Below, piece after piece: positions 1,680-33,001 of a DNA stretch of 33,439 nucleotides. The stretch lies in the NCBI GenBank assembly GCA_017432385.1, contig JAFRJH010000202.1, positions 1-33,439 of the forward strand, written 5' to 3'. Made by a program: the position numbers and the translations under genes. The notes beneath the pieces are model-generated. The model ran no database searches. It was not told where the DNA came from and saw nothing but the letters and a program-made list of their open reading frames with translations. Numbering within the stretch: position 1 is the stretch's first letter; every line of letters begins with the position of its first letter. Source of the stretch: Kiritimatiellia bacterium (GTDB lineage: Bacteria; Verrucomicrobiota; Kiritimatiellia; RFP12; UBA1067).

Positions 1680-1680
1680 G

Positions 1681-4487: not shown

Positions 4488-4535
4488 ATTATATATCCAG
4501 TACCTCAATCAGGCAATCCCTACAAAAGTAGGGAT
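4488..4535 (-). promoter_or_regulatory. Palindromic operator plus sigma70-like promoter P1 (920-aa gene and GH127)
   Basis: ATCCCTAC-AAAA-GTAGGGAT at 4516-4535; - strand TTGCCT (4516-4511), 17 nt, TATAAT (4493-4488). Confidence 0.85.
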
Positions 4536-4540
4536 GACGG

Positions 4541-5665
4541 TCACACCTTGAGGAAGGTGTTCTTGCGGTAGAGGAAGTAGAGGAAAAGCCAGCAGACGAC
4601 GACGTAGCCGAGATTCATCACGACGGCCTTCAGGTCGCCCAACGAACCGGGCAGGTTCCGCCACGACCATCCAAACAGAAAGTCGTTCGCATGGCCCGCC
4701 CCGATCACCTCCTGCGCCATGTAGATGGCGATGGAGTTCATCCCGATCACCTTGAGGGGGAACGCCCACTTCGAGCAGCCCAGGACATCCATGACGGCGT
4801 AGAACGCGAGGAAGAGGAACGTCGAGTACGCGCCGACGACAAGGACGAAGCTCGGCGACCACAGCGCCTTGTTGACCGGGCAGAACGGCGAGAGCGCGAG
4901 TCCTAGGGCCAGGAGCCCCGCGCCCGCCGCCGCGAGATCGAGGCACTTGCGCTTCGGCAAGACGCCGCCGCGGCGGACAAGCTCTCCCGCGAACATGCCG
5001 AGCATCGCCGTGACGACGGCCGGCACAAGGCCGGCGAAGCCCTCGGGGTCGAACAACGGCCGGTAGATGTGTCCGGCGGTGAGCGTGCGGTCGAGCCAGC
5101 ATCCGAAGTTGCCCTCCGGCGAGAACGGACTCGCGCCGGGCGGAGCGTCTGGCGCCAGGACGAAGCGCGTGAAGAGCGCGACGCCCGCGAGGATCGCCGC
5201 GGCGATTCCGATGCGCGCCTTCGTCCTGAACCTGAGGTAGAGCGCGGCCGCGGCGAACCAGGCCACGCCGATGCGCCCGAGGACGCTCCAGACGCGCAGA
5301 TGCGCGAAGTCGAAGCGGAGAAGCGGCCCGTCGTGCACGAGCCCCAGAAGGACCAGGAGCGCGCAGCGGCGCAGCGCCTTGAGCGCGATCTGGAGGCCCG
5401 TCGCCCCCTTTTCGCGGCTCTTCGCCGCCGAGAACGGGAATGTCACCCCGGAGAGGAAGAGGAAGGTCGGAAAGACCGTGTCCATGAAGTGGAGCCCGTC
5501 CCACGGAACGTGTCCGAACGACTCGCGGAAACCGGAGATCCCGAACAGCGACGCAATGGCTACGAAGAGGCCTTCGCCGCCCATGATGAAGAACATGTCG
5601 AATCCGCGCACGGCGTCGAGCGACGCCAGCCGTCCCGATCCCCTCGCCTCAGTCGTCCCTTCCAT
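4541..5665 (-). CDS. NagX / heparan-alpha-glucosaminide N-acetyltransferase-like (DUF5009-type) multi-pass membrane protein
   Basis: RLASLDAVRGFDMFFIMGG, HVPWDGLHFMDTVFPTFLF, SVLGRIG, FDPEG, NKALWSPSF, GMNSIAIY; many hydrophobic helices. Start placed at ATG 5665 (5683 is an alternative); the ORF-track start at 5746 overlaps the upstream gene. Confidence 0.85.
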   Translation of the reverse strand: MEGTTEARGSGRLASLDAVRGFDMFFIMGGEGLFVAIASLFGISGFRESFGHVPWDGLHFMDTVFPTFLFLSGVTFPFSAAKSREKGATGLQIALKALRRCALLVLLGLVHDGPLLRFDFAHLRVWSVLGRIGVAWFAAAALYLRFRTKARIGIAAAILAGVALFTRFVLAPDAPPGASPFSPEGNFGCWLDRTLTAGHIYRPLFDPEGFAGLVPAVVTAMLGMFAGELVRRGGVLPKRKCLDLAAAGAGLLALGLALSPFCPVNKALWSPSFVLVVGAYSTFLFLAFYAVMDVLGCSKWAFPLKVIGMNSIAIYMAQEVIGAGHANDFLFGWSWRNLPGSLGDLKAVVMNLGYVVVCWLFLYFLYRKNTFLKV

Positions 5666-5693
5666 CTGGTCGCCCTTTCCCATCGTCAGTGGT

Positions 5694-7469
5694 TTACTCG
5701 ACGACGATCTGGTAGAAGCACGTCGGCTCGTTCGGGTCGCGCGCAATCGTGAAGAGCAGTTCGCCCGCGCTCGCCGCAGGGGAGTCCATGGGCACGACCT
5801 GCGCGTCCTTCAGCCCTTCGAGGGTCGTCGACTTCCTGTAGCCGTAGAGTCGGCCGGCGAGGGCGTTGTCGATCGTGATCTTGATTCCGCCGCTTCCGTT
5901 GTCAAACCCGCTGATCGAGGGCTTGTAGCCTTCGGGGAGGGGGCCTGCCGGATCGACGGGGCCGTCGGAAGCACCGAACTCGCCCTGGTAGCAGCCGATG
6001 TCGACCTTGCCGTTGTAGAGGCGCGCATGCCCAGCCAGGTCTGTGGCGTCGTACATCCATTCGAGGACTACGCCGTGCGCGTTCAGCACCGAGCCGTCGT
6101 CAGGGCGGAAGTCGCCGTTCGCATAGTCCGCGAACTTGATGCCCTCGGCGTCGGCGCGGCAGGAGAGGTTGGAGCTGACGCCCGTGGCGTCGACGTTCGC
6201 GACAGCCATCAGGCCGGGATTCTCGGACACGTGCTGGAACACGCAGTTCGCGATCTGGACTCCAGCAGGAAGGCCGCTGTAGTGGAAGGCGATGCCGTAT
6301 CCGCCCTGCGTTATCCTTGCGCCGTCGCACGTCCATTCCGCGTTGCCCCAGAACACGCAGTTCTCAAGCAGCGGGGTCATCGAGTCGGCCTTGCAGAACA
6401 CGCCGCCGGCGTTGTCGACGAAAGTGCAGTTCACATAGGTGTCCGAGCCGAACAGCTGAATGGGAAGCTTGTTGCCGATGAAGAGCGTGTTGCGGCACTC
6501 TGGCGAGGACTGGGGATTGACCCAGGGGCGCGTCGAGATTCCGTTGACGGCATTGATGGCGTCGATGGCATCACCGCCCGCGACGAGGGCGTCGTACTTC
6601 GCCTTCGCCGTCCCATAGCAGTTGGAGACGACGCAGCGGTCGATGACGGAGCAGGCCTCTCCTACGAGCGGGCCCTCGCCGATGCCGGCGAACACGCAGT
6701 CCTCGACAAGGAGATGCGCCCTTCCGCCGGACTGCGACATGCAGATGATGCCGGTGGAAGTAGGCAGCGCCGCCAGTCCCATGTTCGAAAACACGCAGTT
6801 GGAGACGACCGACGAGCTGTGCAGCATCACGACGCTCCAGGCCTGACGCGTACAGGAGTCAAACGTCGAGTTCTCCACCCAGAAACTTCCGCAGACCGCG
6901 CCGCCCTGCGAAACAGTGTTGTCGCCGTGCGAACCGCAGGCCGTGAAGCCGCAGCCCGTGATGATCGGATATGCTGCGCGTTCCTCGATTCCGCCGCTGC
7001 CGACGGACGCGCCGTCGGACGTCGCAAGCGCGCCGGCGCGCTTGCCGTGGCAGTTTACGAACTCGCAGTCGCTGATCTCGAATCCGGACATGCCGCCGTT
7101 GCTCGACGAGACGTATACCGGGGCGTTGTCCGCGACGTCGGAGGCGTTCTGGAACGTCAGCCCCGAGATCTTGACCCCGGCCGCCTTCACGTAGAAGACC
7201 GCCGTGGAACGCGCCGGGCTCGCGGTCGCGCCGCCGTCGAGGATCGTCTGCCCCTTGCCGGCGCCGGCAATCTTGACGCCCTTCTCGACCGTGAGCTTGG
7301 CAGTGACGTCGTACGTCCCGGCGGCGAGGGTGATCGTGTCGCCGTCGCCCGCATCTGCCACCGCGGCGGCAAGGCCCGCAAAGTCGCTGACAGGGAAATC
7401 CGCGGCCATGGCGGCCGTCGAAATGCCCGCGGCAAGCGCGGTCCGAAGAATCAGTCTGCTTGTTTTCAT
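5694..7469 (-). CDS. Secreted right-handed beta-helix protein with choice-of-anchor-Q-like motif and shared CFYQIVVE C-terminal domain
   Basis: Start ATG 7469 (MKTSRLILRTALAAGISTAAMA, RBS AGAGGG). DGDTITLAAGTY...GAGKGQTILDG; repeated xNCxF/xDCxF beta-helix rungs; DLAGHARLYNGKVDIGCYQ; conserved C-terminal domain. Confidence 0.75.
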   Translation of the reverse strand: MKTSRLILRTALAAGISTAAMAADFPVSDFAGLAAAVADAGDGDTITLAAGTYDVTAKLTVEKGVKIAGAGKGQTILDGGATASPARSTAVFYVKAAGVKISGLTFQNASDVADNAPVYVSSSNGGMSGFEISDCEFVNCHGKRAGALATSDGASVGSGGIEERAAYPIITGCGFTACGSHGDNTVSQGGAVCGSFWVENSTFDSCTRQAWSVVMLHSSSVVSNCVFSNMGLAALPTSTGIICMSQSGGRAHLLVEDCVFAGIGEGPLVGEACSVIDRCVVSNCYGTAKAKYDALVAGGDAIDAINAVNGISTRPWVNPQSSPECRNTLFIGNKLPIQLFGSDTYVNCTFVDNAGGVFCKADSMTPLLENCVFWGNAEWTCDGARITQGGYGIAFHYSGLPAGVQIANCVFQHVSENPGLMAVANVDATGVSSNLSCRADAEGIKFADYANGDFRPDDGSVLNAHGVVLEWMYDATDLAGHARLYNGKVDIGCYQGEFGASDGPVDPAGPLPEGYKPSISGFDNGSGGIKITIDNALAGRLYGYRKSTTLEGLKDAQVVPMDSPAASAGELLFTIARDPNEPTCFYQIVVE

Positions 7470-7514
7470 GGCTGTATGCCCTCTGTTTGTTCCCGCGAGT
7501 CCGTTTGCGGTTAA

Positions 7515-7560
7515 ATTATCGCAAATATGCCGTTTTCCCACAATCCCTACAGATGTAGGG
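7515..7560 (-). promoter_or_regulatory. Palindromic operator plus promoter P2 (beta-helix gene and NagX-like gene)
   Basis: CCCTAC-AGAT-GTAGGG at 7545-7560; - strand TTGTGG (7543-7538), 17 nt, GATAAT (7520-7515) preceded by TGn (extended -10). Confidence 0.75.
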
Positions 7561-7590
7561 GTTCTGTGACTGGCACGCGTATGGTAAAAT
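7545..7590 (+). promoter_or_regulatory. Divergent promoter P3 for GH92, sharing the same operator; probably leaderless
   Basis: GTAGGG-G-TTCTGT (7562-7567), 17 nt, TAAAAT (7585-7590) preceded by TGn; ATG at 7597 with no Shine-Dalgarno. Confidence 0.7.
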
Positions 7591-7596
7591 GAAGTC

Positions 7597-9564: not shown

Positions 9565-9567
9565 AGC

Positions 9568-11694
9568 TCACTTCGCGGCCTTGAGGTCCTTCTCGCGGAG
9601 AAGGCGCCAGGCGTTTTCGCGGACGTCGTCCATGCCATCGCGGAGGTGGCCGCACGGAAGCGGGGAAAGGCGGACGAGATGCGTTGCGTGCCCGGGAACG
9701 GACGCCTCGTACCTGCCGAGGAACACGCCGACGTCCTCCTGCCGCCAGACGTCGCGGACGCGCCACTTGCACATCAGCCCCGCCGCCTCGAGGTCGAACG
9801 GCACGACCTGCTCGCGGTTCGACTTGTTGTAGAGCCCCGCGGCGACGGAGCCGTCGGAGAGCGGACGCGCCCAGACCTCCCATTCCTCCCCCTCGGCGAT
9901 GCAGCCTGCGCCCTTTCCGAGCGGATCCTGGTCGATCTCGATCACCTCGTCGTTCGACAGGAGCGAAAGAGTGAACGGATCGGCCTTCTCGAGGTCGCAG
10001 CCGATGAGCATCGGCGCTGCGAGGAGAGACCAGAGCGAGACATGCGTGTACTGCTCGTTCGGCGCGAGGCGCGAGGGGTTGCCTCCGTTCCAGCAGACGT
10101 TCCCGACGCAGAGCATGTCGGGGTCGTTCCACGCGCCGGGCTCGGTGTAGTAGAACAGCTTCTTCTGCTTCTCGATCGCCGCGGAGACCGAGCTCCACGT
10201 GTCGAAGACGTCGCCAGTCGTCCGCCAGCTCTGCGCACCCACAAGCCGCCCCCACGCGCTCACGTTCTCCATCCCGTACTGGCAGAGCGAGAAGTAGATG
10301 TCGCGTTCCTGGCGAGCGAGCGCACGCCCCATGACGAGGTACGGGTACATCGCGCGGTCGAGTCCCCTGCCGAACGCGACGTCGTCGTAGAAGCACCAGT
10401 CGTGCTTCAGGTAGTCGAACCCCCAGTCGGCGAAGGTCTTCGCGTCGAACTCCTCGTGCTGCCAGCTGCCGGCGGCTCGGCCGCACGTGAACGGACCGGG
10501 GCTGGAGTAGATGCCTGCCTTGAGGCCCTTGGCGTGGATGTAGTCCACAAGCCCCTTCATGTCGGGGAAGCGCCTGTTCGCGGCGATGCGGCCTTCGGCG
10601 TCGCGCAGGGGCCCTTCGAGGTCGGGATCCTCCTTTGCGCGCTCTGGGATGTTCTGCCAGAAGTCGTCGATGTTGACGTACGAGTAGCCGTGGTCCGCAA
10701 GGCCCGTCGCGACGAGCGCGTCCGCCGCCGCGCGCACCTTCGCGTCAGAGACGCTGCCGCCGAATGCGTTCCAGCTGCTCCATCCGAGCGCCGGCGTAAG
10801 GCCTATCTTCTCCCCGACCTTGATCGTCAACGTCTCCTTCGCCGTTCCACTGGAGTTCTCGGCGACAATCGCAACCTGGTATTCGCCTGGGTCCTTGATT
10901 GAGCCGGAGAGGACTTGCGTGGCGGGGTCGAACGACAGGTCCACTGGACGGCGTGCGCGGCCTGTCCGCCCAGCCGATGCAGCATCGAGGCCATCGCCCA
11001 ACGTTTCGACTTCCAGCCTCGAGCTTTGGACTTTCAGCCTCATCGGCCTCAGGCCGGTGACCGGGACGCGGTAGAGGATCGGCTTCCCGGGCCTGACGCC
11101 GTAGACGCGCGGGCCGTTCACGCGCGGCGATTCCGCCGCGGGCGGCGTGAGGATGCCAAGCTGGCGCGAAGTCCGCCTGACGTCGTTCGGAAGCATCGCG
11201 CCGTCGCGGTACGTGACATGGGCTTCGCCCCACACGGCGAACACGCCCTCTCCGGTTCCATCGACCGGGTCGACCGCGAGCGTCATCGCCTTTACGCCCG
11301 CAACGTCCACCTTCGCCTTGACCTCCTCCTTGTCGCCGAATGCCGTTGGCGGCGAAGTCCAGAGCTCCTTTCCGTCGCCCAGGACGCGCAGCACGACGGC
11401 GCCCTTCGCGCCGGAGCTGTCTACGCCGCAGGACGCCCCGAACTCGAGCGCGTCGCCGCCAAGCGGAATCTCCACGGCGAACGCCGCAGGCGTCCGGAGT
11501 CCGAAGAAATGCTTGTGAGCGCAGGTCGTGAAGCGCTTCTCTATGGCCGCGCAGGCAACCTCGACCTCGCCACTTCCGCGCACGACCTTAGAGACGTCGA
11601 ACTGCTCGCAGGGTATCTGCTGCTCAGCCCGGGCCGCAGTCCCGGCAAGCATGGCGCAAAAAAGACATGGAAACAACAACGCACTGTATTTCAT
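9568..11694 (-). CDS. GH27 alpha-galactosidase with N-terminal NPCBM/NEW2 and Ig-like domains
   Basis: Signal peptide; NPCBM-like GVD...VLGDGKELWTS; TPALGWSSWN, YVNIDDFW, FPDMKGLVDYIHAKGLKAGIYSSPG, DYLKHDWC, SWRTTGD, WNDPDML, EIDQDPLG; RBS AAGGAG. Confidence 0.92.
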   Translation of the reverse strand: MKYSALLFPCLFCAMLAGTAARAEQQIPCEQFDVSKVVRGSGEVEVACAAIEKRFTTCAHKHFFGLRTPAAFAVEIPLGGDALEFGASCGVDSSGAKGAVVLRVLGDGKELWTSPPTAFGDKEEVKAKVDVAGVKAMTLAVDPVDGTGEGVFAVWGEAHVTYRDGAMLPNDVRRTSRQLGILTPPAAESPRVNGPRVYGVRPGKPILYRVPVTGLRPMRLKVQSSRLEVETLGDGLDAASAGRTGRARRPVDLSFDPATQVLSGSIKDPGEYQVAIVAENSSGTAKETLTIKVGEKIGLTPALGWSSWNAFGGSVSDAKVRAAADALVATGLADHGYSYVNIDDFWQNIPERAKEDPDLEGPLRDAEGRIAANRRFPDMKGLVDYIHAKGLKAGIYSSPGPFTCGRAAGSWQHEEFDAKTFADWGFDYLKHDWCFYDDVAFGRGLDRAMYPYLVMGRALARQERDIYFSLCQYGMENVSAWGRLVGAQSWRTTGDVFDTWSSVSAAIEKQKKLFYYTEPGAWNDPDMLCVGNVCWNGGNPSRLAPNEQYTHVSLWSLLAAPMLIGCDLEKADPFTLSLLSNDEVIEIDQDPLGKGAGCIAEGEEWEVWARPLSDGSVAAGLYNKSNREQVVPFDLEAAGLMCKWRVRDVWRQEDVGVFLGRYEASVPGHATHLVRLSPLPCGHLRDGMDDVRENAWRLLREKDLKAAK

Positions 11695-11758
11695 CGCAAT
11701 CGCTCCTTCACTGAACGGCTACGCTGACGCCGTATTCCGTGGATCCGCCAAACCCGCG

Positions 11759-13657
11759 CTATCGTGCAACCGCCCGCAGCGACAGCGCAAGTTCCTCGCC
11801 AGGCTTCAGCTCGACGTACAGGTGTTCCGCCATGAGTCCGGCAATCGTCGTGAACGAACGGTCGCCGCGCTCCGTGCGGCGCACCTCGAGCGGGGCGGAA
11901 GACGTCACCACGAACCGCCGCCCTTCGCGGCTGACCGCCGCGCTGTTTCCGGCGACGTCGATCTCCGTGTCGTCTCCGCCGACGACAGGCAGGTAGTAGC
12001 GGCATGCGGCGGCGGCTTTCGCGCGCACCGAAACGCCCGTTTCGTCAAGCGCGTAGTCCAGGGCGAAAGCCGCACCCTTCTCGCCCTTCAACGACGTCAG
12101 CACCCCCTCGGCGCGATATGAGTAGACTCCGTTGTCCAGGCCCGACTTCACCTTGACGTCGAAGTCCTGCACGCTCGAAAAGCCGTCAGCCGTCTCCAGC
12201 CGCGGCGTCGTGGAGAGGATTTTCCGTTCGCGGCGCGTCTCCTGCTGGTTCGTCGGCTCGGCATGGAAGAAATCAGCCTGCGTCGCCGCGAGGAGCAGCC
12301 CCGCCCTCTCGTGCCAGAGCAGGGTGGGCGACCCTCCGCCGACGGAAAGCCTACGCGCAACGCCGGGGTAAATGTACGCGTCCGACGCGGAAAACGTCGC
12401 GCGCCAGGGCCCGACGGACGCCAGCTCAACGTCCATGCACGGATGCCGCGCCACGCGGTTGGAAAGTTCCCGCGGCATCGGCCCGTCGCCTGCGGATTCT
12501 GACGCGTCCCGGGCCATCACGACGTACTCGGCAAGCGCCTTTGCGTGGGTGAACGTCTGGTGCAGGCATGCCGGCTCCCCCGCGTCGCGGTAGTAGAGCC
12601 CGCCGTAGAGGAGTCCGTCGTCGCCAGTCATCCGTGCATGCAGTCCGACAACTCTTTCGGCCGCGCGGCGCGCCCACCCGACGCCTCGCTTCTCGAGCCT
12701 GGCGAGGAGAGGGAGGACGCCGTCAGCGGTGCGCGAGCCCGAATACGACCACTTGTACGCGCGCGAGCCCGCGCTGTTGTCGATTCCGCCGTCGGGAAGC
12801 ATGAACTCGAGATGCACCTTGGCCGATTCGACGACTGCGGACGCGAATTCCTCGTCCTCCAGCTCCTCGGCCGCCGCCAGCATCGCAGGAAGCGCCTCCT
12901 CGAGGTTGTATGCGATGTCCACGCCGGCACGCCCGCGCGCAGGCGTGCGCAGCTCCATCGGAACGCATTCGCCCATAAGCAGGCCGTCCGGCGAAATGAG
13001 CGGCTTGATCCTGCCCATGGCCTTCAGCGCCTCCTCGACGTACTTCGGCTCGTCCAGCCTATGGCCGGCCTCGGCCATCGCCTCGGCGTAGCTGCAGAGG
13101 TAGTTGACTCCTACCCTTTCGTACGTCTGCCGCTCCTGGAATCGGTCAAACAGCCACTTCGTCTGCCTCAGGTAGATGGCCTCGAGCTGCGAGCGGAATT
13201 CCCCGGGAAGCTTTTCGCCGAACTGCCGGAGAGTGCGCCCTATCGCCAACTGGCTGAACACGGTGATGAAGTTCCACGGCGTCATGTAGTCGTTCTGGTA
13301 CGACCCGTCGCCGCAGAGCATGTTTGCCTCGCACCACGCGATTGACTTGCGCGCAGCCTTGAGATATTTCCCGTCGCCGGTCCTGTCCCACTGCACGACG
13401 AACGGATACACGGCGTCGCCGATGCGTCCGTGAAGGCGCCCGCACGCGGAGCACGCCATCGCGCCGTCGAGCCCGCGGTCGTGCGGGAAGTCAAGCTGAT
13501 GCGCCATCATTCCGTCGCACCACCGCGCAAGCAGCCGCGCGGGCTCCTTGCAGCTGACGCGAACCGCCTTCGACGCATCGGCCTTCCCGCCGTCGGCCTG
13601 CTGCCCGGCGAATGCCGTACCCGCGGCGACAAGCGCCAACGTCAGCCATGTCTTCAT
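11759..13657 (-). CDS. Secreted uncharacterised protein, probable (alpha/alpha)-toroid plus beta-sandwich (lyase/hydrolase-like)
   Basis: Start ATG 13657 (MKTWLTLALVAAGTAFA). Helical-repeat pattern RTGDGKYLKAA, DEPKYVEEA; CSACGRLHGRIGDAVYPF, YNLEEALP, FMLPDGGIDNS, CLHQTFTHAKALA; beta-rich C-terminus. Confidence 0.6.
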   Translation of the reverse strand: MKTWLTLALVAAGTAFAGQQADGGKADASKAVRVSCKEPARLLARWCDGMMAHQLDFPHDRGLDGAMACSACGRLHGRIGDAVYPFVVQWDRTGDGKYLKAARKSIAWCEANMLCGDGSYQNDYMTPWNFITVFSQLAIGRTLRQFGEKLPGEFRSQLEAIYLRQTKWLFDRFQERQTYERVGVNYLCSYAEAMAEAGHRLDEPKYVEEALKAMGRIKPLISPDGLLMGECVPMELRTPARGRAGVDIAYNLEEALPAMLAAAEELEDEEFASAVVESAKVHLEFMLPDGGIDNSAGSRAYKWSYSGSRTADGVLPLLARLEKRGVGWARRAAERVVGLHARMTGDDGLLYGGLYYRDAGEPACLHQTFTHAKALAEYVVMARDASESAGDGPMPRELSNRVARHPCMDVELASVGPWRATFSASDAYIYPGVARRLSVGGGSPTLLWHERAGLLLAATQADFFHAEPTNQQETRRERKILSTTPRLETADGFSSVQDFDVKVKSGLDNGVYSYRAEGVLTSLKGEKGAAFALDYALDETGVSVRAKAAAACRYYLPVVGGDDTEIDVAGNSAAVSREGRRFVVTSSAPLEVRRTERGDRSFTTIAGLMAEHLYVELKPGEELALSLRAVAR

Positions 13658-13662
13658 CCCGT

Positions 13663-17529: not shown

Positions 17530-17560
17530 GGGCACTCCACAGGTTTGTGTTTACGCCCAC

Positions 17561-17606
17561 ATTATAAGCCAAACCACGCCCCTCCGCAATCCCTACAAAA
17601 GTAGGG
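17561..17606 (-). promoter_or_regulatory. Palindromic operator plus promoter P4
   Basis: CCCTAC-AAAA-GTAGGG at 17591-17606; TTGCGG (17589-17584), 17 nt, TATAAT (17566-17561). Confidence 0.85.
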
Positions 17607-17621
17607 GTGCCGACCTCGCCG

Positions 17622-25295: not shown

Positions 25296-25327
25296 GAGGA
25301 CTCCACTGAGTTTCAGTTTGCGTCCCC

Positions 25328-25373
25328 ATTATATGGCAAAAGCCATCCTGCCGCAATCCCTACGAACGTAGGG
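25328..25373 (-). promoter_or_regulatory. Palindromic operator plus promoter P5
   Basis: CCCTAC-GAAC-GTAGGG at 25358-25373; TTGCGG (25356-25351), 17 nt, TATAAT (25333-25328). Confidence 0.85.
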
Positions 25374-25390
25374 GGCGAGCCTGCACATGA

Positions 25391-28219
25391 CTACAGCCCC
25401 TCGACGAGGAAGCTGAGGCTGTACTCGCCACTCCCGATCATGTTGTCGTCGTGAGGCTTCGCACCCCAGCTGTTGTCTCCGCCGACGCCCATCTGGACTG
25501 CGTCGACATTGACGGTGATCGAATCCCCCTCGGATATGGACCATTGGTGCTTGACCTTCTCCAGCGAGGACTGCGGATAGGGCCACGCGTTGAAGCAGAC
25601 TGGCGCGCCGAGCGCGGTAATCTTCACAGACCTTCCCTTTCCGTCGCCGAAGGATATCCAGCGGCAGTCCGTGCGGTAGCCCTGCTCGCCCGGCTCGATG
25701 TAGTTGTCGGGGTTGAGGCGGCGCTCCGGATAGTCGATGCGTCCGTTCTCCCGCGCGAGGCCGCCGACGAGCCCTACGGACGCCTTCCAGACACCGAGAA
25801 GCGCGGCAGTGCGGCGGTCGGAGTAGTTCTCCCAGGGACCCAGTCCGTACCATTCCACTTTCGCCATGTCCTTCGGAATCGTAAATGTGACGCCGATGCG
25901 CGGCACGGGTGAATGATTTTCGCCGATGACGACCTTGAGTTCCACGAGATAGCACTTCTCGGACCTCGAGACCTTGAAGTCAGCACTGCACCCTTCCGGG
26001 AGTTCCTGGGCCTCCGTCGCGTCCTTCCACTCCCTGCACTGTTTCGCCATGTCCCATCCTCGGTCGTTGTCGATCGGCGCGCGCCAGAAGTTCATCCTGA
26101 ACGGATGCTCCGCAACGACCTCTGCGGCAGGCACGGCGACGGGCTCGAACGGCTTCGCGAACTGGTCCATCGCCGCGACGTCGGCACGTCCGCCCACGTC
26201 TGGGTCGATTTCACCGCGCACGAACAGGAACGTGATTGCGTCTCCGTCCGGAACTCCGTGGAGTCTGATCTCCTTCGCGGTGTCGGGCTCGAAGCCCTTG
26301 ACGTCAAGATGCCCGCTCTTGACGAATTTGCCGCCTTTTCTGACAATCCAGTGCGCGCCGAGACTGTCGAGAGTCGAGAATCGGTAGGCGTTGTATATCT
26401 TGGCGGTCTTCGTCTTCCAGTCCCACGAATCGACATGGACAGGCTGATAGGCGTGCTTGACCTCGAATGCCCCAGGATGGTACGTGCGGTCAGAGGCGAG
26501 AATGCCGTTGCAGTTGAAATTGTCTCCGTGGGGCCTCTCGCCGAAGTCGCCCCCGTAGGCGAGCCACGTCCCGCGTCCGTCGGTCTTCCAGAGCGCCTGG
26601 TCGGCGAAGTCCCAGATGAAGCCGCCCTGCATGGACGGATGCCTCCTCACGAGGTCCCAGTAGTCCTGGATGTCTCCGCAGGAGTTGCCCATCGCGTGCA
26701 TATACTCGCAGAGCACATAGGGCTTCTTCGGATTCTTCTTGACGTAGCCCTCGACATGCCAGGGCCTCGCGTACATCGGGCACTTAACGTCGCTGTGGTC
26801 GGAATCCTGCGCGCCCTCGTACTGGACGGGACGCGTCGCGTCGACAGCTTTCATCGCCTCGTATTCATCCTTCATCGCCGGACCGTCCCCACTCTCGTTG
26901 CCGAGCGACCAGATGACCACAGACGGATGGTTGCGGAAAGTCTTGACCATGTTCACGCCTCGTTCGACTATGGCGTCGCGATAGAGGGGATTCTTGGGGA
27001 GCACACCCTCCGTCTCGCCGTGAAGGCGCGCGCCATGCGCCTCGACGTTCGCCTCGCAGACGACGTAGATGCCCTCGCGGTCGCAGAGCTCGTACCACGT
27101 CGGGTCGTTAGGATAGTGACATGTCCTGACCGCGTTGATGTTGAGGTCATGGAATATCTCGATGTCGCGCTTCATCCCCTCGAGCGTTACGGCGTAGCCG
27201 GTCGCCGGCTCCATCTCGTGGCGGTTGACGCCCATGAAGAGCGCCCTCTTCCCGTTGATGTAGATGACCGAGTCCCTGATCTCGACTTTGCGGAATCCGA
27301 AGGCGACGGGATAGACTGACCCTCCCGCCGCCACCGTCTCGTAGTACATGTTCGGCGACTCGGAGCTCCACAGCTTCGGGTTGTCGTACTTCTTCTCGAG
27401 AAGCGTCTTCCCCTCCGCGTCGCGCACGGCGAGCGTGCCCGTTCCGAAGTCGTCGGAGAGCTGCGCCTCCACGATGATGTCTTGCGGGGCGCCCCTGCCC
27501 TCTGCGACAAGCCACACGTCGCGGAAGATTCCCGAGAGGCGCCAGAAGTCCTGGTCCTCGAGGAACGTTCCGTCGCAGTGCTTGAGGACCTCGGCCTCGA
27601 GCGCGTTATCGCCGTCCTTCAGGAACGGCGTGACGTCGAACTCCGCCGGAAGGCGGCTGTCCTGGGAGTAGCCGACATCCTTGCCGTTGACGCGGAGGAA
27701 CAGCGCGGAAGACACGCCGCCGAAGTGGATGACGACGCGGCGTCCTTTCCAGTCGGCGGGCACGGTGAACGAGCGCTTGTAGAGTCCGACCGGATTGCGG
27801 AAGTGGTAGCTCGTGTATTCCTTCGGCGGCTCGACGTATGGATCGCCCTCGTTCCACCCGTGGACGGGATATATCGCGTTCGTGTAGAGGGCCGGGTCGT
27901 ACTTCCCCTGCAGCTGCCAGCAGCCGGGAACCGCGATCTTTCCCGTCTTCTCCCATTCCTTCGCGTAGAAGTCGTGCTTCCACCGGAAGTCCCATTCGCC
28001 GTTGAGCGACTGAAGCCACTTCGACGCAGTGCGCGGCACCTCCCCTTTCGCGACGGCGAGCGCCACTGCCTCAGACTCGCACGGCACGACGATCGACCGC
28101 GCGGGCAACCGGTTGATCTGCGTTACGTTTGGATCGCGCCAGACCTCCTTGGCTCCCTGAGCCGCCGCTAGCGAGAACGCAAGCGGCAAGGACAGGGCCA
28201 ATACCAGCCATGTTCCCAT
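25391..28219 (-). CDS. GH2 beta-galactosidase (LacZ-like)
   Basis: SLNGEWDF, HFGGVSS, SQDSRLPAEFD, EDQDFWRLSGIFRDV, GVNRHE, NAVRTCHYP, NHPSVVIWSLGNE (acid/base), CEYMHAMGNS (nucleophile), GGFIWDFADQ, QMGVGGDNSWG. Start ATG 28219 with RBS GAGGGG just after the upstream stop. Confidence 0.93.
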   Translation of the reverse strand: MGTWLVLALSLPLAFSLAAAQGAKEVWRDPNVTQINRLPARSIVVPCESEAVALAVAKGEVPRTASKWLQSLNGEWDFRWKHDFYAKEWEKTGKIAVPGCWQLQGKYDPALYTNAIYPVHGWNEGDPYVEPPKEYTSYHFRNPVGLYKRSFTVPADWKGRRVVIHFGGVSSALFLRVNGKDVGYSQDSRLPAEFDVTPFLKDGDNALEAEVLKHCDGTFLEDQDFWRLSGIFRDVWLVAEGRGAPQDIIVEAQLSDDFGTGTLAVRDAEGKTLLEKKYDNPKLWSSESPNMYYETVAAGGSVYPVAFGFRKVEIRDSVIYINGKRALFMGVNRHEMEPATGYAVTLEGMKRDIEIFHDLNINAVRTCHYPNDPTWYELCDREGIYVVCEANVEAHGARLHGETEGVLPKNPLYRDAIVERGVNMVKTFRNHPSVVIWSLGNESGDGPAMKDEYEAMKAVDATRPVQYEGAQDSDHSDVKCPMYARPWHVEGYVKKNPKKPYVLCEYMHAMGNSCGDIQDYWDLVRRHPSMQGGFIWDFADQALWKTDGRGTWLAYGGDFGERPHGDNFNCNGILASDRTYHPGAFEVKHAYQPVHVDSWDWKTKTAKIYNAYRFSTLDSLGAHWIVRKGGKFVKSGHLDVKGFEPDTAKEIRLHGVPDGDAITFLFVRGEIDPDVGGRADVAAMDQFAKPFEPVAVPAAEVVAEHPFRMNFWRAPIDNDRGWDMAKQCREWKDATEAQELPEGCSADFKVSRSEKCYLVELKVVIGENHSPVPRIGVTFTIPKDMAKVEWYGLGPWENYSDRRTAALLGVWKASVGLVGGLARENGRIDYPERRLNPDNYIEPGEQGYRTDCRWISFGDGKGRSVKITALGAPVCFNAWPYPQSSLEKVKHQWSISEGDSITVNVDAVQMGVGGDNSWGAKPHDDNMIGSGEYSLSFLVEGL

Positions 28220-28224
28220 ACCCC

Positions 28225-31200
28225 TCACTCCACAACGACCTGGTAGAAGCAGCTCGGCTCGCCCGCCACTTTCGGTATCTCAAGCGTCAGTACGCCGTCG
28301 GCTTCGGCAGGATCGTCGAAATAGACCACCTCGGCGTCCTTGAGGCCGGCAAGCGTCGTCGACTTCCTGTAGCCGTAGGTGTGTCCCGCTGCGGCGTTGC
28401 TGATCGTAATGGCGACCTTGTCGGACAACACCGCAAACGGCACATCAACCCCCTCCCCGCCGATCACCGGCGCATCGGGCTCCACGGGAGCGCCCGCCGG
28501 CAGCTCCCGCACCTGGATGGCGTTGAGCGCACGCCATCCGGCGGGGCCGGAATACTTGACCGCAATGTCCTCCGTCGTGCCCGTCGCATCGAAGACACCG
28601 ACAAGCGAGGCGCCGTACTTGTTGGTGTCGCGCATGGCCATCGGCTCGAGATCACCGGCGCTGATCAGCGCATCGCTCCACTTGTTGTGCGCGAGGACCT
28701 GAACGAGATAGCGCTTTCCGGCCGTCAGCCCCTTGAGCGTGATCGTCAGCGTGCTTGTTGTGTTGGCCCACTTCCACGAGTTCTTCAGCATCGTGCCGAA
28801 GTCTCCGGTCACGCTCTCGCTGCCCGAGCTGCCGTCCGTCTGCGCCAGATCCGGCGAAACCGCCGTGTAGGTCGTATTCAGGTCGGCGTCCGCGGCGAAG
28901 GCAATTCCGTTGACCGTCACCGACTGGACGGCGTAGGCGTAGAGAAGCGTCCCGTCCGTACGGAAAACGGTCCCTTCCGCATCCGCAGCCCCGCCGGTCC
29001 AGCCAGTCTCGACGGAACCGCCGCCGCCACCGCTCGTCGCCTGCACGGTCGGATAGTCGCCGTCGGCGAACGTCTTGTCGCCCGAGAGCGCGAAGACGAC
29101 CGGGTTGCCGCCCGTGATCTCGTAGCCCGAGGCCGCGACAAACGTCACCGTGACCTGCGTGTTCGAAACGATCGAGTAGCTGCCCGCAACCGCCGCCACC
29201 GCGACGCCGTTTGTCGCAACGGAATCAAGGACAAGTCCCGCCTTTCCGGGAATCGTCAGCGTGCAGACGGGCGTCGCCGGATCGACAGGATCGACCGGAT
29301 TCTCGCCACCGCCACCACCCTCGCCGAGATCGCGCACCTGGACGGCGTTGACCGGCCGGTCGCCGTTCGAGCCGGAAAAGAGGATCTCTACATCCTGCGT
29401 CTCGGCCGAAGCAGTGAAGGTGCCAGTCATAAGAGCCCCGTACTTGCCGCTGGCTTCGTCGGAGCCGTAGACATGCTGCGATTCGCAGCCATTGGCGGAG
29501 ACCAGCATGCTGCCGCTCCAGTGCGTGTGCGAGAGGATCTGCACCAGATACCGTTCCCCCGGCGTCAGGTTCTTCAGCGTCAGCGTCACCGCCTTGGTGT
29601 CCGTCGACGAATCCGTCCACGTCCAGCCATTGCCGAGGATGAGTCCGTAGCCACTATCCGAAACTCCCTCGTTCATCAGGCCGCCGTCGAAGCCGGTAGC
29701 CTCCGGCGTGAAGGCGATTTTGTGGGAGGAATCAAGAGGCAGAGCCCGCGTGAACGAGACGCCGTTGACGGTCTGTCCCTGCGCCGCATAGGCGTAGACC
29801 AGCGTGCCCTCCGTGCTGAACTTCGCGCCGGCGGCGTCCATCGGTTCGGACGTCCAGCCGACCGGCGTCGGCGGCGGCTCGCCAATCCTGAAGTTGACGG
29901 ACTTCGCCGCGGACGTCTTGTTCGCGTCGGTCATGATCGTCACCGCGCAGGAATAGACCCCGTCGGCGAGATCGGCGATGTCGAACGTAGCCGTCGAGGC
30001 GGTTTGGCCCTCGAGCGCGGCCACGTCAGGCGCATTGGTCAGCGAGTAGAAAACCGAATAGGAGGTCGCCGAAACGCCTCCGTTGTCGGTTCCCATCTCG
30101 ATGCCCGAAAGCGAGATCGTCGCCGTCGTGCCGTTCGTCGAGACGGAAACCGACCCGATCGACGGCGCGACAACCGGCGCCGGCGGCGTGCCGATCCGGA
30201 AGGAGACGGACTTCGCCGCGGAGGTCTTGTTCTTGTCTGTCGTGATCGTCACCGCGCACGTGTATTCGCCGTCCGCGAGACCGGAGATCGTGAACTGCGC
30301 GGACGCACCGGTCTGGCCCGTAAGCGCGGCTACGGACGCCGCGTTGTTGAGCGAGTAGGAGACGGAATAGGAATTTGCGCTCTCACCGGCATCGTCCGTC
30401 CCCAGCACGATGCCCGAGAGAAAAACCGTCGCCGCCGTTTCGTTCGTCGTGACGGTGACCGAGCCGACCTTGGGCTGGACTACGATCGGCACGCCGCTCT
30501 CGCCGAGGTCGCGCACCTGGATGGCGTTGATGCCGTAGTTTCCGTCGGACGTGATCGTGAACGTCTTGGTGGACTCAGTTGCCGTAAAGGTCCCCGTCAG
30601 CGCGCCGCCGCAGGACCAGCCGTCGCCGTAGACCTTGATGAAATTCGGATCCCAATACGACTCCTTGATCCAAACATGGGCCTTGCTGTCACTGTTGTAG
30701 TTGCGATAGCCGAATATCTGAACGAGGTAGCTACGTCCAGCCGTGAGGTTCTTGAGCGTCACCGCCTTGTCGCCCTGGTTCGCCCACCAGCAGCGGTTCA
30801 GGAGGTCGTAGTAAGCGCCAGAGATGCTGCTCGGAGCCGACGCGCCGGAGGTCTGGTTGTACGGCCAGGAAATGTCGCCCGAGATGTTCGCGTTGTTGTT
30901 CCCGGCAGCCGCGAACGTAACGCCATTGACCGTGCAGGCCGAGGGCGCATACGCATACTTGAGTGTGCCGTCCGTGCGAATGGCGCTTTCGTCGGTCGGC
31001 AGCGGGCTCGCGTACCACGGCTCGGTCATCGTGAAGTCGAGCAGCGTCACGAGCTCCTTGTTGTCCGCCGTCGTGACGGTCACCTTGCAGGTATGGTCGC
31101 CGAGGGCGACATTCGGGATCACGAACGACTTCCTAACGCCCGTCTGGTTGGAAAGCGCACGTGTCTTCGCGCCGCCGTCGAGCTCGTAGTCAATCGCGTA

Positions 31201-32151
31201 GGACGTCACGGCGTTCGCGTTCGCGTCCGTTCCGAGGTTGATGCCGAAGACCGTGATCGTCGCGGAGCCCGCGCCGTCCGCGTTCGGAGCGGCCTTGGCG
31301 TAGCCGAGCGAGGGATCCGCCACGTGCGCCTGGCCGGCGGGAACCGAGAGATACTTGTGCATCGCGTTGGTCAGCGCAGGCTTCCAGAAATCCGAATAGG
31401 TGAAGAATTCCGGATGGAGGCAGAGTCCCACGGCGTCGTAGCCGCCGTGGCCGCCCTCGCGGTAGCAGACCTTGTCGGGCATCGAATTCTGCTGGAGGTA
31501 CTGGCTGCGGAGGTCCACCCAGAACACGCGCTTATTGTCGACGAACTGGAGGATGTAGTCGTTGACCGCCTCGCTCATGGCCGTCACTTCGGCCGCTTCG
31601 AAGTACCTGCTGTCGAAGCTGTAGGGGAGGATCGGCATCAGGAGGATCTTCGCGTCCGGATGCTTCGTCGCCATCTCGCAGAGCATGAGCCGGATCGACT
31701 CGGCGACATCCTCGGCGCGATCGGCGTGCTCGTTGTGGTCGATGCACTTCTGGTGGCCGTTGTTGATGCCGATCATGAGGGTCATGTACTTGGTGGTGTA
31801 CCCCTCGAGGGCGCGGTCTCTGAGACGCCACAGGATGTTCTGGACGCGGTCGCTGCCGATGCCCATGTTGAACGTCTTCGTGTTGTTGGGGTTCCCGTCG
31901 AGGCTCAGGTTCGGATTGCTGTTCCAGAAGTCGGTGATCGAGTCGCCGAACAGGACGATGTCGAAATCCTGGCCCTGGCTCTTCTCGATGTCTTCCTTGT
32001 AGTGGTTCTTGTGGTAGTCGTCCGTGCGCTCCTTCGGCGTGCACGGCTCCGAACTGTGGTCGGATCCCGGCACCTGGGTGCCTATTGTATCTCCGACGGA
32101 AACCAGCGTCAGGGCCGCGGCCAACACGGAGAGTACTGCTTTGATTTTCAT
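28225..32151 (-). CDS. Secreted mosaic: SGNH/GDSL esterase, modules F-A-F-F-A-B-A, C-terminal domain
   Basis: Start ATG 32151 (MKIKAVLSVLAAALTLV, RBS GAGG; 32169 is an alternative). LFGDSITDFW, NMGIGSD, MIGINN, LCLHP. Ends CFYQVVVE. Confidence 0.85.
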   Translation of the reverse strand: MKIKAVLSVLAAALTLVSVGDTIGTQVPGSDHSSEPCTPKERTDDYHKNHYKEDIEKSQGQDFDIVLFGDSITDFWNSNPNLSLDGNPNNTKTFNMGIGSDRVQNILWRLRDRALEGYTTKYMTLMIGINNGHQKCIDHNEHADRAEDVAESIRLMLCEMATKHPDAKILLMPILPYSFDSRYFEAAEVTAMSEAVNDYILQFVDNKRVFWVDLRSQYLQQNSMPDKVCYREGGHGGYDAVGLCLHPEFFTYSDFWKPALTNAMHKYLSVPAGQAHVADPSLGYAKAAPNADGAGSATITVFGINLGTDANANAVTSYAIDYELDGGAKTRALSNQTGVRKSFVIPNVALGDHTCKVTVTTADNKELVTLLDFTMTEPWYASPLPTDESAIRTDGTLKYAYAPSACTVNGVTFAAAGNNNANISGDISWPYNQTSGASAPSSISGAYYDLLNRCWWANQGDKAVTLKNLTAGRSYLVQIFGYRNYNSDSKAHVWIKESYWDPNFIKVYGDGWSCGGALTGTFTATESTKTFTITSDGNYGINAIQVRDLGESGVPIVVQPKVGSVTVTTNETAATVFLSGIVLGTDDAGESANSYSVSYSLNNAASVAALTGQTGASAQFTISGLADGEYTCAVTITTDKNKTSAAKSVSFRIGTPPAPVVAPSIGSVSVSTNGTTATISLSGIEMGTDNGGVSATSYSVFYSLTNAPDVAALEGQTASTATFDIADLADGVYSCAVTIMTDANKTSAAKSVNFRIGEPPPTPVGWTSEPMDAAGAKFSTEGTLVYAYAAQGQTVNGVSFTRALPLDSSHKIAFTPEATGFDGGLMNEGVSDSGYGLILGNGWTWTDSSTDTKAVTLTLKNLTPGERYLVQILSHTHWSGSMLVSANGCESQHVYGSDEASGKYGALMTGTFTASAETQDVEILFSGSNGDRPVNAVQVRDLGEGGGGGENPVDPVDPATPVCTLTIPGKAGLVLDSVATNGVAVAAVAGSYSIVSNTQVTVTFVAASGYEITGGNPVVFALSGDKTFADGDYPTVQATSGGGGGSVETGWTGGAADAEGTVFRTDGTLLYAYAVQSVTVNGIAFAADADLNTTYTAVSPDLAQTDGSSGSESVTGDFGTMLKNSWKWANTTSTLTITLKGLTAGKRYLVQVLAHNKWSDALISAGDLEPMAMRDTNKYGASLVGVFDATGTTEDIAVKYSGPAGWRALNAIQVRELPAGAPVEPDAPVIGGEGVDVPFAVLSDKVAITISNAAAGHTYGYRKSTTLAGLKDAEVVYFDDPAEADGVLTLEIPKVAGEPSCFYQVVVE

Positions 32152-32180
32152 GACATGCCTCGCTTTCATTTTACGATGAA

Positions 32181-32226
32181 ATTATAGGCGAAAATTCACA
32201 ACCTCGCAATCCCTACAAATGTAGGT
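32181..32226 (-). promoter_or_regulatory. Palindromic operator plus promoter P6
   Basis: CCCTAC-AAAT-GTAGGT at 32211-32226; TTGCGA (32209-32204), 17 nt, TATAAT (32186-32181). Confidence 0.85.
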
Positions 32227-32231
32227 GGCGT

Positions 32232-32870
32232 CTAGTTGACGATAATAACCCCGCCGCTGGTCCCTGGTGCGTTCTCGGCCAGCTCCCGCACCTGGATGGC
32301 GTTGATCAAAGCCTGCCCGCTGTACGAGATCACGAACTCCTCCGTCGCGGCATCGGCTGTGAACTCGGCGGACAGCGAGCCGCCGTATTCCCAGCCGGTT
32401 CCGCCGTAGTGAATAACGGCAACCCCATCCGGAGCCGTTGCGGTCTGCGTAGTGTAATCATTGCGGAACGCAATCATCTGGACGAGATACTTTTTCCCAA
32501 CCTCAAGATTATTTAGTTGTATCTTCCGGCCTTTGGCAGACGCCCACCAGGGATGCTCAAGCATATCCTTATAGCCTCCGCTTTCTGTATCACCAGGCGC
32601 AGTAGCACCGGAAGTTCCGGCTCCTCCGGAAGCCTCCCAAACGACACAGTTCTCGGTATTGATGATTTTGTCCCCGACTCCGACAAACTCAACGCCGTTG
32701 GCCGTGTAGTTTCCGCGCGCGTAGGCGTACTTGAGCGTGCCATCGGTGCGGATCGACGTACTGCTTGCGGTGAGCGGCGTACCCGTCCATGTAACGTTGA
32801 ACGCGGCGCCCGCGGCGAGAGCCGACATCGCAACGAGAGCCGCACATGCGAACGACGCGACTGATTTCAT
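32232..32870 (-). CDS. Small secreted protein made of a single module A plus a short C-terminal tail (GTSGGVIIVN)
   Basis: Start ATG 32870 (MKSVASFACAALVAMSALAAG, RBS AAGGAG). TWTGTPL...IRTDGTLKYAY...YLVQ...NAIQVREL aligns with the eight modules in the large proteins. Confidence 0.85.
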   Translation of the reverse strand: MKSVASFACAALVAMSALAAGAAFNVTWTGTPLTASSTSIRTDGTLKYAYARGNYTANGVEFVGVGDKIINTENCVVWEASGGAGTSGATAPGDTESGGYKDMLEHPWWASAKGRKIQLNNLEVGKKYLVQMIAFRNDYTTQTATAPDGVAVIHYGGTGWEYGGSLSAEFTADAATEEFVISYSGQALINAIQVRELAENAPGTSGGVIIVN

Positions 32871-32938
32871 GACGATGATGCTCCTTTCCTTGTGGGCAGT
32901 GCGGATGCATTGCCACCTTCTGCACGACTTGCGACACA

Positions 32939-32984
32939 ATTATAGACGAAGCCAGGGACCATGGCAATCCCTACAAAAGGAGGG
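32939..32984 (-). promoter_or_regulatory. Palindromic operator plus promoter P7
   Basis: CCCTAC-AAAA-GGAGGG at 32969-32984; TTGCCA (32967-32962), 17 nt, TATAAT (32944-32939). Confidence 0.82.
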
Positions 32985-33001
32985 GGCGTCCGCCCCGGAA
33001 G

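Follow-up and report, generated by a model that had tools for sequence, protein, structure and literature searches.

In the 33,439-nucleotide (nt) contig JAFRJH010000202.1 of an uncultured Kiritimatiellia gut bacterium (assembly GCA_017432385.1), hereafter the window, all seven predicted transcription units carry at their promoter a 16-base-pair (bp) inverted repeat, CCCTACNNNNGTAGGG (CCCTAC-N4-GTAGGG), placed at a fixed distance from the -35 hexamer. On balance, we consider it probable that a dimeric NarL/FixJ-type (GerE) response regulator uses this palindrome as its operator, the likeliest candidate being a 207-amino-acid (aa) protein encoded on another contig (C116) of the same genome, and that the site serves class-II-like activation of a local regulon. 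The window is the whole contig C76 of the source genome (G000), a draft of 2.74 Mb in 355 contigs, with 64% G+C and 83% complete.

With at most one mismatch allowed, the palindrome occurs six times in the window (4518-4533, 7545-7560, 17591-17606, 25358-25373, 32211-32226 and 32969-32984), compared with a mean of 0.02 and a maximum of one in 100 dinucleotide shuffles; four copies are perfect and two have one mismatch. An earlier sequence-only reading of the window had given the same coordinates, which our rescan reproduced exactly, together with a 46-bp arrangement on the minus strand that we found at all six sites: the palindrome, an A, TTGnnn, 17 nt and TATAAT (five sites) or GATAAT (7545), the -35 hexamers being TTGCCT, TTGTGG, TTGCGG, TTGCGG, TTGCGA and TTGCCA (minus strand). 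As had also been stated there, both mismatched half-sites (ACCTAC and CCCTCC, minus strand) are promoter-distal and all six palindromes are intergenic. Each lies between open reading frames (ORFs), and the gene it precedes has a signal peptide at its start. A separate promoter scanner found three of the six minus-strand promoters; its rule asks for four of six matches per hexamer, and the promoters missed carry TTGCGG or TTGTGG, with three of six matches to TTGACA. The promoters, with the genes they are predicted to drive, are as follows.

P1, 4488..4533, minus strand: palindrome 4518-4533 (CCCTACTTTTGTAGGG, minus strand), A 4517, TTGCCT 4511-4516, 17 nt, TATAAT 4488-4493; drives 1681-4443 and 3-1679; scanner match 4516..4488, 10/12.
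P2, 7515..7560, minus strand: palindrome 7545-7560, A, TTGTGG 7538-7543, 17 nt, GATAAT 7515-7520; drives 5694-7469 and 4541-5746.
P3, 17561..17606, minus strand: palindrome 17591-17606, A, TTGCGG 17584-17589, 17 nt, TATAAT 17561-17566; drives 13663-17529, 11759-13666 and 9568-11694.
P4, 25328..25373, minus strand: palindrome 25358-25373, A, TTGCGG 25351-25356, 17 nt, TATAAT 25328-25333; drives 17622-25295.
P5, 32181..32226, minus strand: palindrome 32211-32226 (distal ACCTAC), A, TTGCGA 32204-32209, 17 nt, TATAAT 32181-32186; drives 28225-32169 and 25391-28228; scanner match 32209..32181.
P6, 32939..32984, minus strand: palindrome 32969-32984 (distal CCCTCC), A, TTGCCA 32962-32967, 17 nt, TATAAT 32939-32944; drives 32232-32870; scanner match 32967..32939, 11/12.
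P7, 7545..7590, plus strand: divergent use of the 7545 palindrome, G 7561, TTCTGT 7562-7567, 17 nt, TAAAAT 7585-7590.

Genes located between sites overlap or sit 2-64 nt apart, with no promoter-like boxes in these gaps (the 64-nt gap ahead of 9568-11694 has a ribosome-binding site and lacks promoter-like hexamers), and we therefore count seven transcription units that begin in the window, six on the minus and one on the plus strand, with the site present at all seven. The proposal of the sequence-only reading that one activator controls every unit holds for the presence of the site and of a candidate regulator in the genome, while common control by that protein stays a matter of probability. 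P7 is the weakest of the seven promoters (17.6 in plus orientation with the position matrix described below), and the ATG of its glycoside hydrolase (GH) family 92 gene, at 7597, lies 6 nt past TAAAAT; its mRNA may therefore be leaderless or very short-leadered. On the minus strand at 32983-32996, immediately ahead of the 32969 palindrome, we observed a stem-loop, GGGGCGGACGCCCC, whose T-rich tail or spacer enters the palindrome; it is the sole terminator-like feature adjoining a site. The 32969 site is itself a hybrid (CCCTCC..GTAGGG) of the CCCTAC family and of a CCCTCC-N4-GGAGGG family found elsewhere in the genome.

A role of the palindrome in RNA, as a 3'-terminal hairpin of the upstream transcript that would act as terminator, stabiliser or insulator between co-directional genes, would suit the position of five of the six window sites, which lie 8 to 30 nt past the stop codon of the preceding gene on the same strand, and the 6-bp stem present in the best fold at four of the six (five pairs at a fifth). 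We regard it as very improbable, since the stem is followed by ATTGC with no T-run, contrary to an intrinsic terminator, the fold z-scores are only -0.4 to -2.5, with the 32969 palindrome unpaired, and no reported terminator-like site is formed by the palindrome itself (counts of 7 against 11.9 and 13 against 10.2 in shuffles). Moreover, the 7545 site and a further one on C116 (33628) lie between divergent genes, outside predicted transcripts, and a hairpin leaves the one-base register to the -35 hexamer unexplained.

On the scale of the genome, a position matrix derived from the G000 sites and those of a related genome, G013 (scores are circular for those sites), returned eight sites in G000 at 33-37.5 and a degenerate but well-formed one (C116 26617-26636) at 20.4, all other matches being at the level of the shuffled genome, which gave five matches of at least 14. 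The total for G000 is nine sites, six on the window contig and three on C116, and the genome-wide glycan regulon envisaged in the sequence-only reading is not supported by this count in the 83%-complete draft. All nine sites face a gene start, and the strong ones lead to signal-peptide genes. That reading had named copies mostly between convergent genes, or at random spacing from promoters, as an outcome that would speak against it; none of the nine is intragenic or flanked by convergent genes, in contrast to scattered repeats of the repetitive extragenic palindrome or miniature inverted-repeat transposable element type, which have no fixed relation to promoters. When the -10 box was left out of the site pattern, the 17-nt spacer was still recovered at eight of the nine G000 sites and at seven of the eight distinct G013 sites, the other two being of 18 and 16 nt.

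The core boxes themselves are not particular to these sites. Promoter-like sites across G000 commonly read TTGnnn, 17 or 18 nt and (TGn)TATAAT, so that the weight previously laid on the perfect TATAAT of the window has to be given up, this being the general promoter form of the genome. What distinguishes the window promoters is the palindrome. Among 191 pattern-defined promoters (as pattern matches, some fall within genes), 6-N4-6 palindromes with at most one mismatch concentrate immediately before the TTG (offset 0, 13 promoters) and one nt away from it (offset 1, seven promoters), against 0-7 at each of the other upstream offsets; the offset-1 set consists of the CCCTAC family (7/7), and the offset-0 set (13) of other families. 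If transcription starts 7 nt past the -10 box, the dyad would be centred at -44.5, touching and not covering the -35 hexamer, and at -43.5 in the offset-0 families. 

We also observed, near tRNA-like and housekeeping genes, promoters in which an A/T-rich stretch and then CCCCC stand immediately ahead of TTGCGC (general-form examples are C37 ~21995, C105, C233, C297 and C347). Many G000 promoters have CGCAA-like bases 5-8 nt past the -10 box; these being widespread, the CGYAAA past the window -10 boxes is therefore not specific to this regulon. Near-identical stretches on C18, C42, C337 and C350 (…CTTATTGATATAGTAGAA TTGATA…TATAAT…) are probably the ends of a repeated mobile element.

The position of the dyad bears on the sign of regulation. 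None of 20 palindrome promoters has a TTGA-type -35 hexamer, compared with 56 of 171 others (Fisher 0.001), and the TGn extension is present in 5/20 compared with 93/171 (Fisher 0.017), values that are overstated, as related promoters are not independent. Because the register is invariant, the core hexamers are spared and the palindrome promoters are poorer in TTGA-type -35 hexamers and TGn extensions, there is a hint in favour of activation over repression. A repressor dimer at -52 to -37 could bar RNA polymerase, through sigma region 4 or the alpha C-terminal domains, until a glycan signal releases it, and the core promoters (TTG, 17 nt, perfect TATAAT) are indeed of the general strong form in G000, as such a mechanism would expect. 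Nevertheless, operators of repressors need no fixed register, and here the offset is invariant within each subfamily; the site is clear of both core hexamers, the promoters concerned have fewer consensus -35 hexamers and TGn extensions than the others, and NarL-type regulators of catabolic loci driven by sensor kinases are usually activators, so that we hold repression to be unlikely. Three RNA runs each contained 0.05-0.06 of the sampled words, and the contigs assembled from them, mostly 90-95% alike, are probably from relatives and yielded no transcript starts or ends.

The same arrangement was found in other genomes. A 20-base pattern of the site is present in four of 41 related genomes, namely G000, G013 (nine matches, eight distinct), G018 (one place, both strands) and G039 (one, mismatched), G013 being the only one with many sites besides G000. 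A scan of 185,579 species genomes, with a longer pattern that includes the -10 box and thus fixes the spacing in its matches by construction, gave 29 loci, where fewer than about one would be expected by chance (assuming uniform base composition); 13 are titled Kiritimatiellae or Kiritimatiellia, 16 only "uncultured bacterium", and no other named taxon appeared. For three orthologous promoter pairs of G000 and G013, whose downstream proteins are 82%, 78% and 46% identical, only the hexamers, R-TTG, the spacer length, the -10 box, the ribosome-binding site and a portion of the start region align. P1 is an example, as the half-sites, ATTG, TATAAT and the 17-nt distance persist in its G013 orthologue, the remainder having diverged, and a footprint was likewise made for P5 against its G013 orthologue. 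We read this pattern as the footprint of selected protein-binding boxes and not as recent duplication.

Duplication would be the explanation if the six copies had recently arisen from one promoter cassette, or were a small mobile repeat, and no regulator were dedicated to them. Three of the genes downstream (13663-17529, 17622-25295 and 28225-32169) are in fact paralogues, 46-49% identical over ~590 aa, and in a second group of genomes (see below) the spacers of many copies are alike. The flanks and 17-nt spacers in the window are, however, unrelated, with only the functional boxes in common, these boxes are kept between species where other intergenic DNA diverged, and no copy is found in a gene or between convergent genes; we consider this explanation as improbable as the RNA hairpin.

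The second group (G018, G043, G045 and the genome of locus L038) has the same core hexamers, with regulators that carry the helix MVKEHLTS, and in three of its members (G018, G043 and L038) two-component genes are found at distances of 1.7 to 2.6 kb from a site. In its loci (L021-L048; G018:C55 9088-9103) we observed a longer palindrome, ~CCAACCCCTACC..GGTAGGGGTTGG, with the -35 TTG inside the dyad and TGGTAAAAT as the -10 box. The likeness of the spacers in many of its copies suggests promoter-plus-gene duplications there.

The candidate regulator was identified on C116, where the palindrome at 33628-33643 sits 42 nt from the start of a gene for a 605-aa kinase that is transcribed away from the site. 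The regulator gene is immediately downstream of the kinase gene, with a 4-nt overlap.

C116 31771-33585 (= L020 7769-9586), minus strand: kinase, HisKA_3 7.5e-14 and HATPase_c 7.3e-13 (Pfam).
C116 31148-31771 (= L020 7149-7772), minus strand: response regulator, 207 aa, Response_reg 2.7e-24 and GerE 5.1e-14 (Pfam).

The absence of a regulator gene from the window, already noticed in the sequence-only reading, was confirmed by a Pfam scan of the window ORFs. The suggestion made there of a NarL/FixJ/LuxR-family binder is strengthened by this divergent pair and its synteny in G013 and G041; the binding itself we put no higher than probable. Among the 41 genomes, a kinase orthologue with more than 50% identity was found only in G013 (57%, 735 bits; the next best match has 43%, 472 bits), where it adjoins a site on contig C160, and G041 has the same site-kinase-regulator arrangement. 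The regulators of G000, G013 and G041 have in common the helix VRDYLKTTF, which is present in none of the ten other extracted G000 paralogues. Synteny and co-occurrence are what suggest that this protein would bind the palindrome.

The nearest solved relatives of the regulator are VraR, NarL, DesR and DevR. Its receiver motifs LLVDDH, VVIMDL, ILTT and IVKK align with their VraR counterparts, and the acidic pocket and a phospho-acceptor aspartate are present, the residue that we take to be phosphorylated being presumably this aspartate. The kinase begins with a signal or membrane anchor, followed by ~330 aa of periplasmic sequence without Pfam family, a membrane helix, HisKA_3 and HATPase_c. 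In its structural model (predicted local distance difference test score, pLDDT, 81) a long transmembrane and signalling helix comprises residues 351-430, and the periplasmic residues ~25-350 are modelled as three beta-rich modules (~40-127, 156-234 and 258-344). A PDB fold search with this model matched only the cytoplasmic kinase core and gave no periplasmic match, and a fold search of a protein atlas with the periplasmic part returned unnamed clusters with a weak OB-fold hint (scores 0.78-0.79). We also observed that the kinase-gene ATG (C116 ~33586-33600) lies 1 nt past a TGGTAAAAT box, with a GTG two codons on; its transcript, like that of the GH92 gene (window 7585-7599), may be leaderless or nearly so.

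A different dimeric factor, encoded elsewhere and possibly in the unassembled 17% of the genome, with a coincidental adjacency on C116, is the rival to which we give most room, although we still find it unlikely. It is in line with the regulator lying outside the window in a fragmented genome (355 contigs, 83% complete), with the different recognition helix that accompanies the same core hexamers in the second group, and with G042, a 1.4-Mb draft in which a site was found without a close kinase orthologue. Against a coincidence stand the synteny of site, kinase and regulator in G000, G013 and G041, the proximity of two-component genes to sites in the second group, the five paralogous G000 pairs that each lie beside a palindrome of their own (described below), and the fact that no further DNA-binding gene was observed next to the sites. 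A family of ~396-aa proteins (19 genes, cluster 3, e.g. C293 6416-7603), which by eye combine a sugar-binding-protein-type domain with an AraC-type tail, was tried as the source of the regulator and rejected, as the palindrome is unlike the usual AraC-type site and none of its genes adjoins a CCCTAC site.

Several points weigh against the assignment of the palindrome to the C116 regulator as an activator, apart from the non-independence of the promoters compared above. The window and the regulator are on different contigs. G013 and G041 are near-identical at these loci and count as one lineage, so that the synteny rests on two lineages. In the second group the hexamers are the same and the helix is different, and the link of helix to hexamer is thus not one-to-one. 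G042 has one site, and its best kinase match is 39% identical. Finally, the promoters are complete by Escherichia coli standards (TTG, 17 nt, perfect -10), and an activator might not be required.

If the C116 regulator is nevertheless the binder, as we favour, the kinase would sense an extracellular glycan-derived signal and phosphorylate the regulator, a dimer of which would take both hexamers; the hexamer centres are 10 bp apart and therefore on the same helix face. The dimer, at about -52 to -37 and one base from the -35 hexamer, would then aid a sigma-70-type RNA polymerase. Ten promoters would be served, seven in the window and three on C116; the genes under them, for secreted glycosidases and esterases, would form a local regulon, one among parallel modules in G000. 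To judge from the enzymes encoded, the signal may derive from galactose, arabinose, mannose, N-acetylhexosamine or acetylated units.

The gene content under the seven promoters is given below.

P1 operon, 3..4443, minus strand: 920-aa secreted protein without Pfam family (1681-4443); GH127-like beta-L-arabinofuranosidase (3-1679, running off the contig end).
P2 operon, 4541..7469, minus strand: right-handed beta-helix protein (5694-7469); ORF 4541-5746, start unfixed, with a weak DUF5009 match.
P7 gene, 7597..9564, plus strand: GH92 alpha-mannosidase family (Glyco_hydro_92, E = 1e-114).
P3 operon, 9568..17529, minus strand: 1288-aa dienelactone-hydrolase esterase/phytase-like protein; 635-aa protein without Pfam family; Melibiase_2 alpha-galactosidase with NPCBM.
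P4 gene, 17622..25295, minus strand: 2557-aa secreted protein with two GDSL acylhydrolase domains, lamin-tail and CotH.
P5 operon, 25391..32169, minus strand: 1314-aa GDSL/Fn3 protein; GH2 beta-galactosidase (25391-28228).
P6 gene, 32232..32870, minus strand: 212-aa secreted protein without Pfam family.

All seven units begin with signal-peptide proteins, mostly glycosidases and esterases, and Pfam also places a GH20 fragment among the window products. For the 1314-aa GDSL/Fn3 gene the second ATG, at 32151, is the likelier start. The gene caller, used for clustering and neighbourhoods only, was crude: it overlooked 5694-7469 and 32232-32870 and put several regulator genes on the wrong strand.

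The C116 pair is not the only one of its kind in G000. In five of ten upstream regions of paralogous kinase/regulator genes (on C116, C194, C289, C302 and C225), we found a different 6-N4-6 palindrome abutting a TTG hexamer and followed by a -10 box. Of four target genes scanned next to such pairs, three encode glycoside hydrolases (GH16 in two cases, GH5 with AXE1 and LamG in one) and the fourth a LamG/DUF2341 protein; one of the GH16 targets adjoins the C175 pair, which showed no palindrome. Beside the closest paralogue, in G006, the palindrome is CCCCAC-TAAA-GTGGGG, with a 1-nt offset too. The offset-0 families comprise CCCCTC..GAGGGG, CCCCCC..GGSGGG, TTATAC..GTATAA and CTGCCC..GGGTAG, several of them beside HisKA_3/GerE paralogue pairs.

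C20 ~29560, C205, C296, C302 4802-4817, C324, C348, C23, C1 ~13046, C87 ~14782, C289, C312 and C194: offset-0 palindromes.
C1 7622-7637, C316 4369-4384 and C345 1231-1246: CCCTCC-N4-GGAGGG family, followed by GTTTTC, with TATAAT 25 nt past the palindrome.

Just 5' of the start codons of paralogous kinase genes (C194 ~2290, C302 ~4750, C225 ~690 and C175 ~25710) we observed a GGAAATATGAGAAACTAT-like conserved stretch at a varying distance from the palindrome, possibly the kinase genes' own promoter. The kinase family is expanded, with 14 matches in G000, 25 in G013 and 0-25 per genome among the 41. We tentatively propose, with slightly more doubt than conviction, that the genus has an expanded NarL-type set in which each member joins an undescribed three-module periplasmic sensor, a private 16-bp palindrome (register 0 or 1 nt) and an enzyme locus, a functional counterpart to the regulation of polysaccharide utilisation loci (PULs) in Bacteroidota. 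Such a modular code would be legible directly in the sequence.

Our literature search, outside which subscription journals and supplements fell, found no paper on this motif or on any Kiritimatiellota promoter or operator. What is new is the hexamer, together with the organism, the regulon and the sensor domain; regulator family, site geometry and promoter position each belong to a known kind. Members of Kiritimatiellota degrade polysaccharides in guts and sediments and are either uncultured or difficult to grow. If our reading is true, it gives a promoter consensus for Kiritimatiellota, and sequence alone suffices to assign a sensor together with its regulator and some ten target promoters; enzyme genes responding to one and the same glycan could then be grouped in metagenome-assembled genomes, even across contig breaks. 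Paralogous GerE regulators with differing hexamers would constitute a natural series for the study of DNA recognition.

The candidate regulator resembles NarL, VraR/LiaR, DesR and DevR in its combination of REC and GerE domains and in its HisKA_3 partner kinase (E = 3e-37 to VraR and 1e-29 to NarL), although identity is modest at best and its recognition helix, VRDYLKT, differs from their V-K-x-H. The NarL site is a 7-2-7 arrangement of heptamers, different from the 6-N4-6 form described here. FNR is centred at -41.5, and LuxR and TraR boxes lie near -42 to -45. The CRP class II site is also centred at -41.5, as given in an excerpt of PMC3950696; a literature search on RcsB boxes by the -35 hexamer yielded nothing beyond this CRP figure. 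As in class II promoters, the dyad is upstream of the -35 hexamer at a fixed register, here at about -44.5 by the predicted start and without overlap of the -35 hexamer.

Closest in form is the ComA box of Bacillus subtilis, an inverted repeat of TTGCGG, 4 nt and CCGCAA bound by a homodimer, as far as the excerpted text of PMC4797271 describes it. In both systems the site has two hexamers with a 4-nt spacer, a regulator site adjoins the -35 region and the first half-site is better conserved (same excerpt of PMC4797271 for ComA), but the hexamer is GTAGGG here and TTGCGG there, and the phyla are unrelated. According to the same portion of PMC4797271, the ComA inverted repeat is further upstream, with a separate direct repeat by the -35 hexamer, whereas here the inverted repeat abuts it. 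The signals would also differ, a peptide quorum signal for ComA and presumably a glycan here.

In Bacteroidota, PULs are regulated by hybrid two-component systems (AraC output), SusR and pairs of extracytoplasmic function (ECF) sigma and anti-sigma factors. Unlike these, the system proposed here is a classical two-protein one with GerE output, not a hybrid kinase with AraC output, and the Pfam scan of 18 window ORFs and four C116 ORFs showed no SusC or SusD family. It would nevertheless have in common with the Bacteroidota PULs a dedicated envelope sensor per glycan locus, beside secreted glycoside hydrolases. Within Kiritimatiellota, the part of PMC10880615 that deals with Pontiella agarivorans places response regulators and HisKA_3 kinases in the vicinity of genes for glycoside hydrolases and sulfatases.

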